A stretch of 46,237 nt of DNA from a virus: positions 1 through 46,237 of the IMG/VR virus record IMGVR_UViG_3300031372_000011; one strand, written 5' to 3'. Shown here piece by piece: positions 2,012 to 38,547 of the stretch. Under the pieces are notes generated by a model that was not told the origin of the DNA, searched no databases, and saw only the letters and a program-made list of their open reading frames with translations. Both the position numbers and the translations under genes were made by a program. Numbering within the stretch: position 1 is the first letter of the stretch; each line of letters opens with the position of its first letter.

Positions 2012-2576
2012 CTTGATGGTAGACCTGGAAACCATGGGCAATAAGCCCAACGCGCCAATCGTGGCGATCGGTGCCATATTCTTTGAACCAGCCACCGGCG
2101 AACTCGGACAGCAGTTCTATACCGCGGTGAATCTTGCCAGCGACATGGCGGCTGGTGCCGTTCCTAGTGGGGATACCATTAACTGGTGGCTGATGCAGAG
2201 CAGTGAGGCACGGGCGGCGATCACCACCGATGCCGCAGTAACCATTAACGTGGCCATCTGCGAGCTCAGTGCCTTCGTTCGTCAACACGGTGAAGATCCA
2301 AAATATCTCAAGGTGTGGGGGAATGGGGCCTCTTTCGATAACGTAATCCTTCGCAGTGCTTATGAGCGCTGTGGCTTACCGCCATGCTGGAACTGGTTCA
2401 ACGACTTGGACGTCCGTACCATCGTGAACCTCGGCCGGCTGATTGGTTTTGACCCAAAGCGCGATCTACCATTCGACGGTGATCGACATAACGCACTGGC
2501 TGATGCAATTCACCAGGCACAGTACGTGTCAGCAATCCACCAGCGGTTATTGGCACCCCACCAGCAAGATCTTTAA
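2004..2576 (+). CDS. DEDDh-type 3'-5' exonuclease (DnaQ-like fold)
   Basis: Three Exo motifs are present: Exo I (MVDLETMG), Exo II (WGNGASFDNVIL) and Exo III (HNALADAIHQA). The ATG at 2004 overlaps the upstream stop. Confidence 0.75.
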   Translation: MNNLMVDLETMGNKPNAPIVAIGAIFFEPATGELGQQFYTAVNLASDMAAGAVPSGDTINWWLMQSSEARAAITTDAAVTINVAICELSAFVRQHGEDPKYLKVWGNGASFDNVILRSAYERCGLPPCWNWFNDLDVRTIVNLGRLIGFDPKRDLPFDGDRHNALADAIHQAQYVSAIHQRLLAPHQQDL

Positions 2577-2621
2577 TTTTGGCGGCCCGTTGCAGCGGGC
2601 CTAATTGTGTGGAGATAAACC

Positions 2622-2840
2622 ATGGCGAATGAAGCAAAACTTATGAAGGCCAGCGCTTGGGGTAAAAGAGAGTTTGAGGTGGGTTCAATACCAGATAATC
2701 GAACTATCAAACGCTGGATCGAAATAGGCAAGCTGCAGGGCAAGGTTGTTGAAGGTGCGATATTTGTCGCATCCACTGAGAAATGGGGAGTTCAATCTAC
2801 TATTTCCCATGCTGTTACTCAATTAATCAGGGAGTCTTAA
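2622..2840 (+). CDS. xis: Excisionase-like DNA-binding protein
   Basis: A 72-aa ORF lies immediately upstream of int. It has a lambda-Xis-like segment (NRTIKRWIEIGKLQGKVVEG). Confidence 0.6.
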   Translation: MANEAKLMKASAWGKREFEVGSIPDNRTIKRWIEIGKLQGKVVEGAIFVASTEKWGVQSTISHAVTQLIRES

Positions 2841-2841
2841 A

Positions 2842-4041
2842 ATGGCTGGCCGCCCGCGCCATCGGGAAAATAGGCACCTGCCCGATTGTCTTTATTATGA
2901 CAAGGACGCGGGCGTCTACCGATTTACATTAATAAACGGCGTAAGGAAATCACTCGTTGATGCGTCCACTCGTAAACCATTGGATCGCGCAACAGCAATT
3001 GCTATCGCCAGAGAATATAATAATAGGATGCGGCCAGAGGTGGCAGTATCAGTAGACTTTCTGATCCGTGAATCCGGTGGGGTACAGGGGGAGGCATTAC
3101 CGTTTGCTGAACACGTCGATCATATTATGGAAAGAGCTATAACTGATGAAAAACCATCAGAAAGCACCCGTGAAGATTGGAATAATGATGCTGTCCGCGT
3201 GAAAGCCTTCTTCAGTAATATTCCAGCCTGCGATATAGAGCTGGAGCACGTGAACGCCTATATAAAGGAATATCATGCAGAAGCATCAGCAAACGTGCAA
3301 AACCGTAAGGTCAGCTTCTTGAAGAAGTTATTCAGCTATGCGGTCGATGAATCGCTGATGCTCGATAACCCGGCCACTCGTAAGAAGATGCGCCGGATCG
3401 AAGAGAAAAGGCGCCAGCGGTTGTCCTTTGAAAACTTCATGGCTATCCGTGCCGCTGCGGCTCCATGGTTGCGAACGGCTATGGATCTGGCTCTGCAAAC
3501 GACACATGCCAGGCTAGAGGTATCACGTATCCGCTATACCATCCGAGAGCCAAAAAATGGTATCTGCGGTTGCCTATGGCTCGATCAGCCTGAAGATGGC
3601 ATTTATGGCACGCTGTACATCCACCGCCAGAAGGTGCAGAAGAAAGAGGCTTCACATGTGGCTATCCCGATCGGTGCCGAGCTAAAGCGGATTATTGACG
3701 ACAGCCGGGACAGCGTGGCCAGTCCTTACATAGTGCACAGGATCCCAGATCGAAGAGTTAAGCCCAGCAAAGAAGTGGCGCACCCGACACAGGTTGCCCC
3801 GGACTATCTCAGCCGGTCATTTTCTGCTGTACGGGACAAGCTCGGCCTATCCGATCACCTGGAAATGGACGAGCGGCCAACGTTCCATGAAATCCGCGCA
3901 CTGGCCGCGCACCTGTTCGATAACCAAGGTATCGACCCGCAGGCGCGCATGGCTCACAGCGATGCTAAATCTACCAAGATTTACACCCAGAACCATATCG
4001 ATTGGGTGGTGGTACCACACGGGGAAATCAAAACAGGGTGA
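2842..4041 (+). CDS. int: Tyrosine site-specific integrase (lambda Int-like)
   Basis: The 399-aa ORF has a C-terminal catalytic region (HEIRALAAHLF...AHSDAKSTKIYTQNH) that includes the terminal Tyr. It is adjacent to xis and to a tRNA-derived attP. Confidence 0.9.
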   Translation: MAGRPRHRENRHLPDCLYYDKDAGVYRFTLINGVRKSLVDASTRKPLDRATAIAIAREYNNRMRPEVAVSVDFLIRESGGVQGEALPFAEHVDHIMERAITDEKPSESTREDWNNDAVRVKAFFSNIPACDIELEHVNAYIKEYHAEASANVQNRKVSFLKKLFSYAVDESLMLDNPATRKKMRRIEEKRRQRLSFENFMAIRAAAAPWLRTAMDLALQTTHARLEVSRIRYTIREPKNGICGCLWLDQPEDGIYGTLYIHRQKVQKKEASHVAIPIGAELKRIIDDSRDSVASPYIVHRIPDRRVKPSKEVAHPTQVAPDYLSRSFSAVRDKLGLSDHLEMDERPTFHEIRALAAHLFDNQGIDPQARMAHSDAKSTKIYTQNHIDWVVVPHGEIKTG

Positions 4042-32795: not shown

Positions 32796-33470
32796 TCATG
32801 CTGTTAAAAGTTGCTTTCTCGCAATTCTGTGACCAACAACACAATGCAGTGCATTGGCATCCAGAGCAGTAACCAGCTGCAAAATGCACTCCCAATGCTC
32901 AGCGTAATGCATCTGCCAGTTACTGCGCTGCACACCCGTTAGCTCAGCCAGCTTGGCGTATTGGTAGATACCGCAGCCTTGCAATGATCCGTATTCACTG
33001 GCCCTCTGCTGAACAGCCAGCCATACCAGGCTTTCTATCCGCTTTAGAACTTTGCCGGTCATTTTCTTGCCCTGCATACCAGACAAAAAATCAGCCCAGA
33101 CATACCGACATATAGCAACCTGCCCATCAAAGTTAAGGTCATGCGCGTAACAGTAACGGATCCAGGCATGCTGCGGCGTATCCAGAACGCTGACCGCCCG
33201 GCGCCATGAGCTGGTGCAATATGTTAATTCATGTAAAGGCGGGAATGGCCTAACCCTGGTGCGCGTTTCGGGGCAATGAATAGGATCGGTTTCCGGGCAC
33301 ACCTTGCGGTTGCCAACTACCACCGTGCGGTGGCGCTGACGCTTGAACCGCGTGGTGTGCGCCAGTGCCGCACTCTCGAATGCGGCCAGTTGTCCTTTGG
33401 TCATCCCGTGGATATCGGCCAGGGCCAACGATACAGCGCCGCGAACATACTCTAGATATTGCTGATTCAT
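32796..33470 (-). CDS. Putative late-gene antiterminator (Q-like)
   Basis: This is the last gene before the late promoter, terminators and lysis cassette. The segment AWIRYCYAHDLNFD resembles antiterminator-Q families as I remember them. The call is mostly positional. Confidence 0.5.
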   Translation of the reverse strand: MNQQYLEYVRGAVSLALADIHGMTKGQLAAFESAALAHTTRFKRQRHRTVVVGNRKVCPETDPIHCPETRTRVRPFPPLHELTYCTSSWRRAVSVLDTPQHAWIRYCYAHDLNFDGQVAICRYVWADFLSGMQGKKMTGKVLKRIESLVWLAVQQRASEYGSLQGCGIYQYAKLAELTGVQRSNWQMHYAEHWECILQLVTALDANALHCVVGHRIARKQLLTA

Positions 33471-34507
33471 TTTTTTGCCCCGCGCTTATTTGCTGTGACG
33501 ATTACCCCGAGGCCGTACGCCCGATCGAGGGTACGCGCCAGGTGATAAAGTTGGCTGCCGTGTTCGGCCTCCCATGCCGCCACATTGTCATGCAACTTGT
33601 TGTGGCACTCCCTGGTGAGAGGAATGGCGAATATGTCGTGTGGTTTGGTGCCGGTACCGCCGAAGCCCTGATCGATGATGTGGTGCGGGTCATCCGCCGG
33701 GCGCCCGCAACCGCAACAACACACCTGCGATTTAACCCACTGGGTGTACTTCTCGCACTCCCACCGCTTCATCTTGGGCCGCAGCATGAAACCTGCTGGT
33801 GGCTCGGGATCGATGTCGACCGCCAGCACCGGCTTAATCTGCTCCACGTAGTCATTGATGACTTCGACTGGTGCGCGCTCCCAGGTGATATCCGCCTCTC
33901 TTCGGGTACCGGTTAGAACCTCTGCTGGTGGCAGGCGCAGAGAGAACCTAGCCACAGAGTCCGGCAACAGGTCGGAAACCTGCTCCATCACAGCCCACCA
34001 GCACAGTTCCGGCAGGCTCAGTTGGTGGTTTTCGTCAAAGCGGAAATGCGTACGGGCACGGTACAGGATGAAATCCGCCACGTTCCTGATGGCCAGATCA
34101 TCGAGGGCCGGTAACGTCTGCTCGGCCAGAGTGTGTTCGTGATGCCAACACAGGCGAACTGCGCCATCGCCGTACCGCAGCGTGCTCATGTTCCGATCGT
34201 GATAATCGTCAGCGGGAGCGTGCCACTGGCACTCGTTCGACCGGTCTAGCCAGTCCACCAGCGCATTAATGCCACCAGCGGCAACAAGAACCCGCTTATT
34301 GGAGAAGAAAGAGGAAAGGCGTGGATCAGCGGCAAGGTGCTGGCTGGCCACCGGCACCAACCCGGACGGCAATGGATTAAGCTCTGCAGGCTCACTGGCA
34401 ATCAGCAGCCGCGCACGGCCGGTGAAGTAATGGAGCAGATCCCGACCAGGGCGCAGCAGCACCACGCCCAGATCACGCTGCACGTAAGGAGTGAGCAGCA
34501 TCTTCAT
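33467..34507 (-). CDS. DUF968-domain protein (HNH-like Zn-ribbon/His-Me C-terminal domain)
   Basis: The C-terminus reads WVKSQVCCCGCGRPADDPHHII...GTKPHDIFAIPLTRECHNKLH. The ATG at 34507 overlaps the C5-MTase stop (ATGA). Confidence 0.6.
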   Translation of the reverse strand: MKMLLTPYVQRDLGVVLLRPGRDLLHYFTGRARLLIASEPAELNPLPSGLVPVASQHLAADPRLSSFFSNKRVLVAAGGINALVDWLDRSNECQWHAPADDYHDRNMSTLRYGDGAVRLCWHHEHTLAEQTLPALDDLAIRNVADFILYRARTHFRFDENHQLSLPELCWWAVMEQVSDLLPDSVARFSLRLPPAEVLTGTRREADITWERAPVEVINDYVEQIKPVLAVDIDPEPPAGFMLRPKMKRWECEKYTQWVKSQVCCCGCGRPADDPHHIIDQGFGGTGTKPHDIFAIPLTRECHNKLHDNVAAWEAEHGSQLYHLARTLDRAYGLGVIVTANKRGAKK

Positions 34508-36489
34508 GCAGCCACCTCCCGGCGTGGTACACACATTTCCGGTAGATTGGCACGGACCAGCGCTTCAGCAAATGGAGGCGGTACCGCATTGCCACAGCGG
34601 GCTACTTGTTTATCCTTCGCGTATTTCTTGCCCTTGTAGTCCTGATCGATGATATACCAGGATGGGAAACCCTGAGCAGCGTAAAGCTCATGCGGTTGCA
34701 GCATACGCATGCCAATATCAACGATCTGGTAATCGATGCCCTCTACCGTGACCAGGCCAAAGCGGTCGTTGGTTGTGACGGTGTGCAGTGGATCCGCGAG
34801 GCTTACCCCTTCTTTCTCGTTGCCGTAGTATTTCAGCAGGAAGGCGCGAACCTCACCAAAGTGATTGCCACCGGCGGTTACCGTCTGCAGCGGTGCTGTG
34901 ACTTCCTGGCCAATGTTGGTACCGCGCATCTTGATAAGGTTGGATGTGACCAGAGAGTTGTGATCGGTTGTCGTCACCGTATGCAAAGGACTGGCCAGAT
35001 CAGAGCCCGGACCGGTATAGTTGCCGCCGAAGTGTTTGGCCAGGAACGTAGCCACCAACTGGCTTTTGCCACCACCGCCAGCAGTGATCGTGCCATTTGG
35101 CTCATCTACAGCATGCCCTACGCTGTTGCCGAACTGGCGCGCAATGAGCGGAGCTACCACCAGGTGCTCTGCTTTAGTCGTGACTGTTGTTAGCGGTTTG
35201 TCTGCCTCATAGGCCAGGCGATCACCACCAAATCCTGTCTGGCCAATGCGGGCAATGACTGGCGCAATAACACAGGAATGGTTTGTATTGCACAGCGTAT
35301 GCATCGGCTGATCTACAGATCGCGGTTTCGCGGAGTATTTAGGGCCGCCAGCACCAGCGATAAACGGGGCCAATTTCGCCTCAACCATTCCCATAGCATG
35401 CCCATTACCGCCTGGCCGCTCGGAACTACCCGCCGTGATGGTGGAAAGCGGCTCGTCACATTCTTGTCCGGTGGCTCCGGTGCGGAACTTGGTGATGTGT
35501 GGCGATACCAGCGCGTAACCATGGGTTTTCGTGATCGTCTGCAGTGGTTCAGCCAGTGACTGGCCACGGAAACAGTTGTAGACCGTTTTAGTGCTGGTAT
35601 GGTTGCACTTCACGATAAACGGCGCCGGGCTATCGATAACAAAGCGCTGAATGCCGCGGGCAATACGGCGCAAGGTGTTTTCGGCCAGCGGTCGCTTGCG
35701 CTCGAAGATACTCGGGCAAGGAATAGACCAATCAATGCACTCCGCCGCGGTGCGCCATGGCTTCAGCTTGCCGCTTTGGACTTCCAGCGATTTCGGATCC
35801 CCGTGGGTAGGCTCTGGCCAGACAATTGGCCGCCCGTCGCGACGCATCAGCATGAAGAAGCGTTTACGGATGGTTGGCGCGCCATAGTCACAGGCCCGCA
35901 GCTCACGGTAATCGACAACATAACCCAGACCGGCAATCAGCCGGTTGTGATCGTCACTACCCACTTCAATGCCCAAAATGTCGCAGCATTCGGCCAGCGC
36001 CGGGTGATCTGCTTCTATGCCGGTGGTCAGCATTGCCACAAATCCTGCGAATGTTTCCCCTACACGGGCAGGACATGGGTAATTATTGCCGTTTTCGTCG
36101 GTGACCAACGGCCCCCACGTCTTGAATTCTTCCACGTTTTCCAGCGGGATTACCCGAGGGCGGGCCTTTAATATCCAGCGGATAACGATCCAAGCAAGGC
36201 CGCGAATTTCTTTCTTAACCGGCGCGCTGCCCTTGGCCTTGCTGAAATGACGACAATCAGGACTGAACCATGCAAGGCCGATGGGTTGCCCTGCGGTCGC
36301 AGCTACCGGATCGATATCAAAGACGGACTCGCAGTAGTGAAGCGTATCGGGGTGGTTGGTTTCGTGCATCGCAATAGCGTTTTCGTCGTGATTAATCGCA
36401 ATGTCAACGCTGCGCCCAGTGGCCATCTCAATGCCGGTACTCGCCCCACCGCCGCCAGCAAAATTATCTACTATCAGTTCACGGATCAT
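34504..36489 (-). CDS. DNA (cytosine-5) methyltransferase with an expanded, internally repetitive target-recognition region
   Basis: The conserved motifs are I (DNFAGGGG), IV (FSPDCRHFS), VI (PLENVEEF), VIII (PTIRKRFFML), IX (MRMLQPHELYAAQGFP) and X (CGNAVPP). Eight PLxT(I/V)T-type modules lie between motifs VIII and IX. Confidence 0.85.
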   Translation of the reverse strand: MIRELIVDNFAGGGGASTGIEMATGRSVDIAINHDENAIAMHETNHPDTLHYCESVFDIDPVAATAGQPIGLAWFSPDCRHFSKAKGSAPVKKEIRGLAWIVIRWILKARPRVIPLENVEEFKTWGPLVTDENGNNYPCPARVGETFAGFVAMLTTGIEADHPALAECCDILGIEVGSDDHNRLIAGLGYVVDYRELRACDYGAPTIRKRFFMLMRRDGRPIVWPEPTHGDPKSLEVQSGKLKPWRTAAECIDWSIPCPSIFERKRPLAENTLRRIARGIQRFVIDSPAPFIVKCNHTSTKTVYNCFRGQSLAEPLQTITKTHGYALVSPHITKFRTGATGQECDEPLSTITAGSSERPGGNGHAMGMVEAKLAPFIAGAGGPKYSAKPRSVDQPMHTLCNTNHSCVIAPVIARIGQTGFGGDRLAYEADKPLTTVTTKAEHLVVAPLIARQFGNSVGHAVDEPNGTITAGGGGKSQLVATFLAKHFGGNYTGPGSDLASPLHTVTTTDHNSLVTSNLIKMRGTNIGQEVTAPLQTVTAGGNHFGEVRAFLLKYYGNEKEGVSLADPLHTVTTNDRFGLVTVEGIDYQIVDIGMRMLQPHELYAAQGFPSWYIIDQDYKGKKYAKDKQVARCGNAVPPPFAEALVRANLPEMCVPRREVAA

Positions 36490-37355
36490 GCTGTGGCTCC
36501 CATTGCGGCGGTTAAGGTGGTTGCGGTCTGGATAATGGCTTCGGCTGGTGTGCCTTCCAGTTTCATGCGGTTTATGTGGCTACGCAGTTTGTTCTGCAGG
36601 TGCTCCGGCAAACTGCTGGCGGTGTCCACCTGGTCAAACAGGAAATTAACTTCCTGCGGCCAAACGGTGTTGCCGGTTTCCGGCTGAATATTTTCTGGAA
36701 TATTTTGGGGTTGGATTTGTGGTGCCAAGCGCTCGGCCTCGCGACGGATCTGCGCCATAAAGGCTTCACCCATATTTTCCAACTGGGTGCGGCTCACATA
36801 GCTGGTGGCCGGGCCATGCCATGCCTTATCGAACACGGCGATCGCCCCAGCAAAGAATGCGCCGGTGGGCACCTGCTTTGCATTCGCTGGCACAAACCAC
36901 TTCGGCACATCAAACCCGACTCGGCCCCGGATGAAAGCGACATGATCAGCATGCTCTGGCCACCAGGTTTCTGAGGTTGCTGCTTTGATCAGGAAAACAT
37001 ATCTGCCTCCCAGTTCACGCATAGCCATCGCGTGGGCCATGATGTGCACCATGCCGGTGATGTACTGATCTTCGTGCTGCTGGGCGCGGGAATATGGCGG
37101 ATTGCCAAAGGCGGCACCATGCAGGTCTGCCAGCTTTTCTGACCAGTTCTGGGTCAAGGCATTATCTTCGGCGGTGTAGTACGCCGGGCACTTGCTGTTT
37201 TGGCCATCAGTGAACAGGTCCAGAACAAGCGGCCCGAACATGGCATTGATACCCCAGAACAACGGATCGGGAGTGCACCACTGATCGCCAACTTCTTTCA
37301 ACATGTGCTCTGGCTTGGTACGCAAAGCGGTTAGATTTTCACAATAGAAATTCAT
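36486..37355 (-). CDS. Phage-type DNA N6-adenine methyltransferase (Dam family)
   Basis: The motifs WCTPDPLF..., LDLFTD and FGNPPYS (NPPY) are present. The ORF has an ATGA overlap with the C5 MTase. Confidence 0.85.
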   Translation of the reverse strand: MNFYCENLTALRTKPEHMLKEVGDQWCTPDPLFWGINAMFGPLVLDLFTDGQNSKCPAYYTAEDNALTQNWSEKLADLHGAAFGNPPYSRAQQHEDQYITGMVHIMAHAMAMRELGGRYVFLIKAATSETWWPEHADHVAFIRGRVGFDVPKWFVPANAKQVPTGAFFAGAIAVFDKAWHGPATSYVSRTQLENMGEAFMAQIRREAERLAPQIQPQNIPENIQPETGNTVWPQEVNFLFDQVDTASSLPEHLQNKLRSHINRMKLEGTPAEAIIQTATTLTAAMGATA

Positions 37356-38371
37356 CCTGCCAACCTCCCCAGATCGTTCTCACTGGCCTGAGCCACAGCT
37401 TGTGCCCAAATGCCTGTCCATGCCCGGCGGGCGTCGTAGTCGGTCATGCGACCCAGGGAACCAGCCATTTTCTGGGCTATCTCCTCGATCTCGTTACGTG
37501 GCTTTCGGCGCTGGGATATCAGGCGGGTGTAAGCATCGTCCCGGGCAGCGGTGTCCAGTCTCTCGACTTTCGGCAGGTCGTTGGCCCGTTCTTCCTTGAC
37601 CGACAGGTAGCATTTCTCGGTGATCAGGTAGTCGAAATCCTTCTTGCGCCATGTCTTACCGCTGGTGGTATCCGGGCGGTCTTCCAGCATCCAGCGGCAC
37701 TTCTTGGCGATGTAGCGCAGGTAAGCGCCCCACTTCTCGATGTTCAGGTCGTACTCTTTCCACAGCTTGCGCAGCACTTTGCGACGGGCTTCGGTCACTT
37801 TGAGAACCTGTGGCAGTTCTGGCAGTGTGTCGTGGAAGGTTTTCAGCACAGCCTGATAATCGATTTTCAAAGAATCTTCCTGCGGTTCGTCGGCTGGCGC
37901 AGCCAGTTGACCAACAGGTTTTAATACTGATGGATCTTGTTTTGAATTTACTGACGGATCGTATCCAGATTCTGGAGGGTCAAAAGTCCCGTTTTTGCCG
38001 GATTCTGACGGGTCAGATTTTGAGGTATCAAATTTTGATGTATCAGATTTTGAGGTGTCAGATTCTGGAGGGTGAAAGTTAGCAGCAGCACGCAGTTTAT
38101 CTACGTTCAGTTGGGTCATGCTTGAGGTATTGCGGTTACCCTTGCGGCGCTGCTGGCGGCTAATCCAGCCTTCTTCCACAAGTTTTGCCAGTGCTGCGCT
38201 TACCGTGCTCTCGCTCGCGCCGATCTGCCGGGCAATGGTCTTGGTGGAAGGCCAGCATAAGCCCTCGTCAGACGAGAAATCCGCCAGGCGCGCCATGATG
38301 GCCACCATGGATAATTTCATGCCCGCCGCCGCGCAGCCGTCCCACACGTATGCGGTTAATTTTGTGCTCAT
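37352..38371 (-). CDS. Replication initiator (lambda O-like role; N-terminal winged-HTH) containing the origin iterons
   Basis: The N-terminus reads GLCWPSTKTIARQIGASESTVSAALAKLVEEGWI. An internal pentapeptide repeat (SDTSK) is encoded by 15-bp iterons. The ATG at 38371 overlaps the upstream stop (ATGA). Confidence 0.7.
   Translation of the reverse strand: MSTKLTAYVWDGCAAAGMKLSMVAIMARLADFSSDEGLCWPSTKTIARQIGASESTVSAALAKLVEEGWISRQQRRKGNRNTSSMTQLNVDKLRAAANFHPPESDTSKSDTSKFDTSKSDPSESGKNGTFDPPESGYDPSVNSKQDPSVLKPVGQLAAPADEPQEDSLKIDYQAVLKTFHDTLPELPQVLKVTEARRKVLRKLWKEYDLNIEKWGAYLRYIAKKCRWMLEDRPDTTSGKTWRKKDFDYLITEKCYLSVKEERANDLPKVERLDTAARDDAYTRLISQRRKPRNEIEEIAQKMAGSLGRMTDYDARRAWTGIWAQAVAQASENDLGRLAG
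37964..38072. repeat. Putative replication origin: six 15-bp iterons (consensus TCAGATTYTGAGGKN)
   Basis: Four contiguous copies lie at 38013-38027, 38028-38042, 38043-38057 and 38058-38072. Related copies lie at about 37965-37979 and 37998-38012. Confidence 0.7.
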
Positions 38372-38547
38372 AATACAAACCTGAAAAAGCGTGAACGGAA
38401 GATGATCAGCGCAGTGGTGATCTCCCACGAATAACCGACCGGGCTATAGGTAACGGTCTGGTTTTCCTGATCAATGCCGTGGACCAGCACTACAACGTGA
38501 TTGCGGTCGCGGTAATGGTGATGGGCCTGAATAGCCAGAGTAGTCAT
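38368..38547 (-). CDS. Hypothetical protein (59 aa)
   Basis: The ATG at 38547 overlaps the upstream stop (TGATG), and its own stop overlaps the replication-gene ATG. Confidence 0.45.
   Translation of the reverse strand: MTTLAIQAHHHYRDRNHVVVLVHGIDQENQTVTYSPVGYSWEITTALIIFRSRFFRFVL

Follow-up and report, generated by a model that had tools for sequence, protein, structure and literature searches.

How many different DNA sites can one cytosine methyltransferase read? The question is raised by a gene in the virus record IMGVR_UViG_3300031372_000011 (IMG/VR), which we analysed as a single window: the complete record, 46,237 bp long, with direct terminal repeats at its ends. An open reading frame (ORF) on the minus strand (34504-36489) encodes a 661-aa C5 DNA cytosine methyltransferase, and between its catalytic motifs VIII and IX lie eight similar modules. 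An earlier note on this DNA had proposed that the enzyme carries several target-recognition domains (TRDs) and may give broad protection against restriction. Our own reading, held with moderate confidence, is that this is an orphan, lytic-cycle phage methyltransferase in which one catalytic pocket would be served by the modules (here also called cassettes) as alternative readers of the target, with the resulting multi-site methylation shielding the phage DNA. We infer that each cassette specifies its own motif, and likewise the timing of expression.

The catalytic part of the protein is that of a standard C5 enzyme. It matches Pfam PF00145 (C-5 cytosine DNA methylase) at 1.4e-21 and the PHROG DNA-methyltransferase families phrog_116 and phrog_23072 at 1e-101 to 1e-104. 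The catalytic motifs by which PF00145 membership was judged are complete and in canonical order: I (FAGGGG, residue 10), IV (PDC, 77), VI (ENV, 117), VIII (RKRFF, 208), IX (RMLQPHE, 595) and X (GNAV, 633). Two AlphaFold2 runs, built on 86 close and 140 diverse relatives respectively, gave confident catalytic lobes, and the top Foldseek matches of the modelled core are all C5 methyltransferases (3g7u of prophage CP-933R, DNMT1, M.HaeIII and M.HhaI). The linker between motif VIII and the modules is almost unchanging across the 140 diverse relatives and has a mean pairwise identity of 0.87 in relatives of the same architecture. Annotation of the operon neighbours with Pfam and PHROG found no restriction endonuclease partner, and the best explanation of the locus includes a putatively active, orphan (i.e., lacking a partner nuclease) phage C5-cytosine methyltransferase. 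The parts of the gene outside the module array are as follows, where pLDDT is the predicted local distance difference test score.

34504..36489, minus strand: orphan C5 DNA cytosine methyltransferase, 661 aa plus stop (ORF, PF00145, PHROGs, Foldseek)
35848..36489, minus strand: catalytic N-lobe, residues 1-214, with motifs I, IV (PDC, Cys79), VI and VIII (motif positions; AlphaFold pLDDT mostly 80-98)
35620..35847, minus strand: linker from motif VIII to the module array, residues 215-290, WPEPTHGDPKS...AECIDWSIPCPSIFERKRPLAENTLRRIARGIQRFV (conservation)
34507..34740, minus strand: catalytic C-lobe, residues 584-661, with motif IX (RMLQPHELYAAQGFP) and motif X (GNAVPPP) (pLDDT 86-96 for residues 600-650)

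The earlier note had placed eight modules between motifs VIII and IX, starting at residues 314 to 566, and the pattern P..T[ILV][TC] confirms them exactly. It matches at P315, 347, 395, 432, 464, 501, 533 and 567, so the spacings between module anchors are 32, 48, 37, 32, 37, 32 and 34 aa, and in 20,000 shuffles of the protein the same pattern occurred 0.063 times on average and at most twice. A hidden Markov model (HMM) of the module recovers eight separate domains, each with an E-value of 1e-10 to 1e-15. The coordinates first given for the array, 34720-35550, correspond to residues 314-590. The modules are listed below in protein order, with approximate boundaries based on HMM domains and cassette typing.

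35500..35619, minus strand: module A, residues 291-330, anchor EPLQTIT (HMM domain, cassette type)
35365..35499, minus strand: module B, residues 331-375, anchor EPLSTIT, with the SERPGGNGHAMG loop (HMM domain, cassette type)
35239..35364, minus strand: module C, residues 376-417, anchor QPMHTLC (HMM domain, cassette type)
35146..35238, minus strand: module D, residues 418-448, anchor KPLTTVT (HMM domain, cassette type)
35047..35145, minus strand: module E, residues 449-481, anchor EPNGTIT, followed by AGGGGKS (HMM domain, cassette type)
34939..35046, minus strand: module F, residues 482-517, anchor SPLHTVT (HMM domain, cassette type)
34843..34938, minus strand: module G, residues 518-549, anchor APLQTVT, with GEVRA at its end (HMM domain, cassette type)
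34741..34842, minus strand: module H, residues 550-583, anchor DPLHTVT, terminal and adjoining motif IX (PF00145 TL position; near-universal)

The claim that the last module sits where ordinary enzymes have their one recognition element also held up. Positions 200-320 of the PF00145 model align to 34552-34974 (approximately residues 506-646), a stretch made up of modules G and H plus motifs IX and X, and because of this alignment G-H can be regarded as the canonical variable-region core. At the DNA level, the module copies are 65-77% alike over 26 nt and no more, so the duplications are old and diverged, and recent tandem duplication or slippage is ruled out. Within cassette E, the string FGNSV(GH) at residues 453-457 (about 35119-35133) resembles catalytic motif X (GNxV, residue 633), which is probably a coincidence.

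What makes the modules candidates for target readers is the motif they share. The TRDs of C5 methyltransferases have a consensus 'TL motif', (YFW)X(RK)X5-P(STCA)PT(ILV)(TASV)X5-16-H, which lies 10-50 residues ahead of motif IX, is central to the TRD and conserved, and touches the DNA in the solved structures of M.HhaI and M.HaeIII (PMC2413257). Several TRDs can be arrayed in tandem, as in Bacillus phage enzymes (PMC8936443, PMC12707154). In the 661-aa protein, the P-x-x-T-[ILV]-[TC] part of the TL motif is present in all eight modules, and in five of the eight a His follows 3-5 residues later. The SPbeta enzyme served as a control, and it contains exactly two TL motifs, SPTLTT and EPAFTVNTIDRHG (EPAFTVNT), 45 aa apart. 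That enzyme is bispecific, methylating GGCC and GCNGC, so two TL motifs go with two specificities, i.e., one motif per TRD.

If each module is a reader, one would expect the modules to behave as units in evolution, and among close relatives they do. Our close set comprised 120 close homologues and 77 IMG/VR loci, with each protein cut into modules by HMM. The 714 unique modules of 198 close relatives fall into 11 discrete types, in which the query reads A-B-C-D-E-F-G-H, and these relatives carry 6-10 modules in 32 architectures. What differs between them is whole cassettes, and the breakpoints fall cleanly in the hLVxP strand. Relatives of the ABDEFGH form, for instance, lack exactly APFIAGAGG...SCVI (module C), ACDEFGH relatives (at least 95% identical over the first 290 residues) lack exactly cassette B, P0001 (98% identical over the first 290 residues) has type I in place of E, and some relatives have module F doubled. 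Judged from these sequences, cassette turnover is fast, since the 21 proteins that match the query at 95% identity or more in their first 290 residues (the catalytic core and the linker) already show six architectures. Such natural single-cassette variants in near-identical backbones amount to a ready-made deletion series, which makes a cassette-to-motif code testable.

The modules are also conserved, which bears on a very different account of the array. In that account the enzyme is monospecific: DNA is read by the terminal G-H unit alone, and the remaining cassettes would be pseudo-TRDs or serve as a flexible spacer that plays no part in specificity. Among 66 proteins of the same architecture, mean pairwise identity is 0.85-0.90 for modules A, B, D, E, F and H, compared with 0.86 and 0.91 for the two catalytic lobes. 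It is lower for C (0.71) and G (0.80), each of which occurs in two allelic subtypes among close relatives. The modules are thus conserved like the catalytic lobes and therefore do not form a drifting spacer, and purifying selection on A to F is as strong as on the catalytic core.

The allelic subtypes themselves are easily told apart. For G (window positions 34843-34938; P0043, P0050 and P0093 being the relatives under comparison), the two forms are MRGTNIGQ..AGGNHFGEVRA and LRGTCKDGQ..AGGLHIGEVRA. For C (35239-35364), they are PKYSAKPR..HTLCNTNHSC and SEYQ(A/G)KPR, the latter carrying HTVLKESHAA in P0043 and P0050 and HTILKQSRAA in P0093. If cassettes set specificity, the G and C subtypes may be specificity variants.

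Is an array of eight exceptional? An HMMER scan of 1.84 billion cluster representatives found 2,751 clusters with E-values below 1e-30, from which 263 family members were used as a diverse set (modules counted by an iterated module HMM and typed by average-linkage clustering). These members carry 2-12 modules per protein, and in a second, independent sample, 76 proteins from named genomes, the number runs from 3 to 9 with a median of 6. Eight modules is therefore ordinary, being mid-range for the family. The 76 proteins span Alpha-, Beta-, Gamma- and Zetaproteobacteria, genomes labelled Deltaproteobacteria, Bacillota, Planctomycetota, Dehalococcoidia and Obscuribacterales. In the diverse set, protein length follows the regression length = 28.1 x modules + 454.

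Diversity in this wider family is combinatorial, with 248 architectures among the 263 diverse members. There are more than 20 well-populated cassette types, each marked by conserved loop residues of its own, and many rare ones, and the modules follow no fixed order (e.g., C-I-J-x-F-q12-B-E-G-H in one member versus A-B-C-D-E-F-G-H in the query). Permutable order together with clean deletion argues that each cassette is structurally autonomous. Cassette types are also shared across wide taxonomic distances. KY197768.1, labelled Bacillus phage phi105, encodes a 458-aa family member at 2468-3850 with the three cassettes I-G-H, and this protein is 56% identical to the query over aligned stretches covering 86% of the query. 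Against the enterobacterial G type, its G module reaches a score of 0.92, and its G and H are nearly the same as those of enterobacterial phages. The KY197768.1 record has no annotation over this locus and one annotated feature in its whole length.

The one near-constant module is H, found in 224 of the 263 diverse members, and the G-H pair is terminal in 136 of them. Rather than acting as a variable TRD, H may serve to anchor the structure. It is here that an enzyme reading DNA through G-H alone finds its support: one member (P0201, 472 aa) has G-H as its complete architecture, H is nearly universal, PF00145 aligns to G-H only, and inactive 'pseudodomains' have been described in Bacillus phage methyltransferases. 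Against this stand the selection on A to F described above, the conservation of A-F types between Firmicute and proteobacterial phages, and the protection at many unrelated sites that is given by tested homologues with at least five cassettes. We consider a monospecific enzyme with a repeat spacer to be quite improbable.

Those homologues have been assayed in published work. In the passages of PMC5537653 that cite Dziewit & Radlinska 2016, two Aeromonas phages are said to encode m5C methyltransferases 'with relaxed specificity': phiARM81mr (ARM81mr_p29) and phiARM81ld (ARM81ld_p31). Large phage methyltransferases of this kind, about 700 aa, are described as widespread in Alpha- and Gammaproteobacteria (PMC5537653). 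A tblastn search against phiARM81mr aligned ARM81mr_p29 to the query with 54.3% identity over 100% of the query. Its cassettes are q12-E-F-G-H, with normalised similarities to the query's E, F, G and H types of 0.59, 0.66, 0.90 and 0.94, and an F-like module is present in both ARM81 enzymes. Full-length homology and the same variable-region building blocks thus place ARM81mr_p29 and the query in the same family. Like the query, the ARM81 enzymes are orphan, phage-borne and adjoin replication genes; unlike it, they have five cassettes rather than eight, with a first cassette of another type.

Further tests come from two Paracoccus aminophilus prophage enzymes, JCM7686_0772 and JCM7686_2655, which gave partial protection against 16 restriction enzymes: AluI, BglI, Bme1390I, BsuRI, CaiI, EcoO109I, EcoRII, Hin6I, HpaII, HpyF10VI, MspI, NciI, PauI, PvuII, TaiI and XhoI (PMC3925955, supplement 8). 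Twelve other enzymes in the panel cut completely, and the 5mC-sensitive (5-methylcytosine-sensitive) ones left fully active include those for CGCG and GGNNCC, MluI and NcoI (PMC3925955, supplement 8). By our rough grouping, the 16 enzymes represent about nine or ten motif classes, including AGCT, GGCC, CCNGG, CCGG, GCGC, ACGT and CTCGAG. That is close to the approximately nine modules which the length regression predicts for a 700-aa member, an agreement that is suggestive only. By analogy, the published tests on homologues point to multi-site methylation by the query as well.

Protection at many sites can also be explained without many readers. The cassettes could jointly form one composite TRD of relaxed specificity, i.e., one long surface or clamp for binding DNA, to which a very short or degenerate context (e.g., a dinucleotide) is enough and which makes the enzyme nearly non-specific, with cassette number tuning affinity or processivity. 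This is how those who tested the homologues worded their results: they reported 'relaxed substrate specificity' and partial protection at many sites, and the activity was later summed up as modifying cytosine in a CC context (PMC3925955, PMC5537653). Non-specific phage adenine methyltransferases are an established precedent (PMC3299994, PMC7556043), and AlphaFold shows no autonomous module fold. Free permutation of order and clean deletions between near-identical enzymes are, however, hard to square with one cooperative surface, and the strongly conserved loops that each type keeps across phyla suggest type-specific readout. Nor is the methylation context-free, since the Paracoccus panel left several 5mC-sensitive enzymes fully active. 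A single composite TRD is, in our judgement, a real but rather unlikely alternative.

The earlier proposal of multiple TRDs therefore stands in part: it is supported by the TL motif in each module, by the swappable and conserved cassettes and by homologues that protect many sites, and it loses the support of kinship to the Bacillus enzymes. Several results weigh against the idea of many independent readers. Residues 288-594 have pLDDT below 50 and are without secondary structure in both AlphaFold2 runs. H, and often G too, is nearly invariant, so one or two of the eight modules are possibly structural. The module HMM scores the SPbeta enzyme at an E-value of 0.05 (-0.1 bits), and a profile of 71 diverse modules had no match among PDB sequences at E-values up to 10. 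Finally, the authors who observed partial protection by homologues read it as relaxed specificity, not multiple TRDs (PMC3925955, PMC5537653), and the Paracoccus enzymes are tied to the query's family via identity figures in PMC5537653. A copy of the Paracoccus phage or genome, sought with an alphaproteobacterial query and a genome-contig scan, was not among the matches listed. In the literature on the ARM81 and Paracoccus enzymes we found no mention of repeats or TRDs, and the terms 'TRD' and 'target recognition' occur zero times in PMC6536676.

Foldseek against the PDB gave matches to the core only and none to the module array, which was itself modelled at pLDDT below 50. The absence of predicted packing between modules is weakly compatible with an arrangement like beads on a string.

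How far does the comparison with Bacillus enzymes carry? The earlier note had likened this enzyme to the M.SPRI/M.Phi3TI type, and we checked sequence kinship on the SPbeta enzyme. It was not borne out: hhalign gave a probability of 4.8%, confined to the motif VIII region, alongside the module HMM result above. The query enzyme is thus not a sequence relative of the SPR/phi3T/SPbeta enzymes, and the Bacillus case serves as an analogy without placing the query in that family. Two features of the type are nevertheless shared by the query, namely several tandem TL-motif units between motifs VIII and IX (seen in the sequence) and a phage-borne gene in a lytic-cycle operon without a cognate endonuclease. 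Another feature, sequence relatedness beyond the generic C5 core, is absent. At most, then, the enzyme would work like the Bacillus multispecific enzymes while standing outside their subfamily.

Those enzymes, methyltransferases of Bacillus temperate phages (M.SPRI, M.Phi3TI, M.SPbetaI, M.Rho11sI and M.H2I), are likewise phage-borne and orphan and have tandem TL-motif units of similar size. By analogy, the two groups would share a common logic in which one catalytic core serves many readers. They differ in that the Bacillus enzymes belong to another PF00145 subfamily and have two or three active TRDs, compared with eight modules here and up to 12 in the query's family. Experimental proof of TRD independence exists for the Bacillus phage enzymes only; the group is associated with the work of Trautner, Noyer-Weidner and colleagues.

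It had also been suggested that eight TRDs would exceed the described Bacillus cases, which needs qualifying. M.BceSV (BCE_0393), a C5 methyltransferase from a prophage of B. cereus ATCC 10987, has seven reported targets (PMC3459991), and relatives of the query have up to 12 modules. Compared with the query by description only, M.BceSV is likewise prophage-encoded and adjoins an adenine-methyltransferase gene (BCE_0392), and it is poorly expressed in the lysogen. The adenine-methyltransferase neighbour is a ParB fusion at M.BceSV and a PF05869 Dam-type enzyme at the query.

Under our preferred reading of the cassettes as alternative readers, the system might work as follows. The C5 gene, in the delayed-early operon of a lambdoid temperate phage, would act on replicating phage DNA, and because of that position the enzyme is probably made only in lytic growth. 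Each of the eight non-identical cassettes (~32-45 aa) consists of a type-specific loop, the P-x-x-T-[IVL]-T 'TL' element and a type-specific turn, with loop and turn corresponding to the two target-reading elements of solved C5 methyltransferases. The cassettes would dock one at a time beside the single catalytic pocket, so that one polypeptide could methylate several unrelated short motifs, and the phage would be shielded in advance from many restriction systems that are sensitive to 5mC. As hosts change, the range of protected sites would be retuned through recombination between the similar strands on either side of the cassettes (hLVxP), by which cassettes would be gained, lost or exchanged. 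Terminal H, often with G, would be the constant part, the counterpart of the one TRD core that ordinary enzymes have.

Enzymes of this kind are already known: members of the family have been assayed, the Bacillus precedent goes back decades, and the query adds little beyond its family. What may be of wider interest is the family as a whole, where the common cassette types number more than 20 and the rarer ones over a hundred. Tentatively, and with a little less than even confidence, we suggest that it is a natural combinatorial library of ~35-aa TRD cassettes, each for one short motif, permutable and exchanged among phages from different phyla. The cassettes present in an enzyme would in that case form a 'specificity code' from which a phage's 5mC methylome could be predicted, and no known DNA methyltransferase would be more multispecific than the enzymes with 8-12 cassettes, the query among them. 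Provided that the cassettes read independently, a single small gene pre-methylates phage DNA against many restriction systems and can be retuned by simple recombination, and this would be part of the explanation for the host range of phages in Enterobacterales (e.g., Serratia and Yersinia). Such cassettes would also offer a compact toolkit, to be mixed and matched, for programming 5mC methylation, and sequence would become a guide to 5mC motifs, most of which escape PacBio-based methylomes.

The location of the gene is relevant to when and why it acts. It lies in a lambdoid early-right operon whose order, in the direction of transcription, is CI-like repressor (on the opposite strand), CII-like, Ant, O-like replication protein, Dam-type N6A methyltransferase, C5 methyltransferase, DUF968/HNH-like protein and Q-like antiterminator, followed by holin and endolysin. 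Its immediate surroundings are as follows.

36486..37355, minus strand: Dam-type N6-adenine methyltransferase, upstream neighbour, 289 aa (PF05869, 2e-40; phrog_111)
33467..34534, minus strand: DUF968/HNH-like protein, downstream neighbour (PF06147, 9e-71; phrog_96, phrog_304)
32796-33470, minus strand: Q-like antiterminator (downstream of the DUF968 gene)

The stop of the Dam-type gene overlaps the C5 start by 4 nt. Such overlaps occur at three junctions in this operon (37352-37355, 36486-36489 and 33467-33470), which suggests, on gene layout, that the early genes are translationally coupled. Among 80 related viral loci, the Dam-type gene is upstream of the C5 gene in 39 and the DUF968 gene directly downstream in 33.

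This arrangement invites a mainly regulatory explanation, in which the C5 enzyme, with the adjacent Dam-type methyltransferase, marks phage DNA for replication, packaging or the control of lysis versus lysogeny. The gene is directly between replication genes and Q and translationally chained to them, and a role linked to replication has been proposed for homologues on the basis of the same location (PMC5537653). Such a role leaves unexplained the fast cassette turnover between near-identical phages and the hundreds of architectures, i.e., diversifying combinatorics of a kind that fits an arms race with restriction systems. As the main function we find it very improbable, and regulatory and anti-restriction roles are not mutually exclusive.

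The nearest named proteins are from Serratia fonticola and Serratia sp. 14-2641 (90-91% identity) and from Yersinia prophages, so the host is probably a Serratia-like enterobacterium.

Several smaller observations concern the gene and its neighbours. The adjacent adenine methyltransferase is not of the non-specific ARM81ld_p56 type (BLASTP E-value of 70); it is a PF05869 Dam-type enzyme instead. Three antisense ORFs of 146-195 aa lie on the plus strand within the methyltransferase gene (34606-35193, 35599-36171 and 36247-36687). The codon-aligned antisense frame, followed through 78 relatives, has a median open stretch of 188 aa (range 93-402), so its open length is not conserved. We found no evidence here for a nested antisense gene, given this variation in open length from 93 to 402 aa and that such a frame is typically open in GC-rich genes; the ORFs are most likely a codon-usage artefact of a GC-rich gene. 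The five early genes from O-like to Q-like (32796-38428, minus strand) are linked by short overlaps. The PHROGs label for the DUF968 (PF06147) protein is HNH endonuclease. Its listed GTG start at 34534 overlaps the C5 gene by 31 nt, and the true start may be an ATG in the same frame, nine codons further on (MKMLL...).

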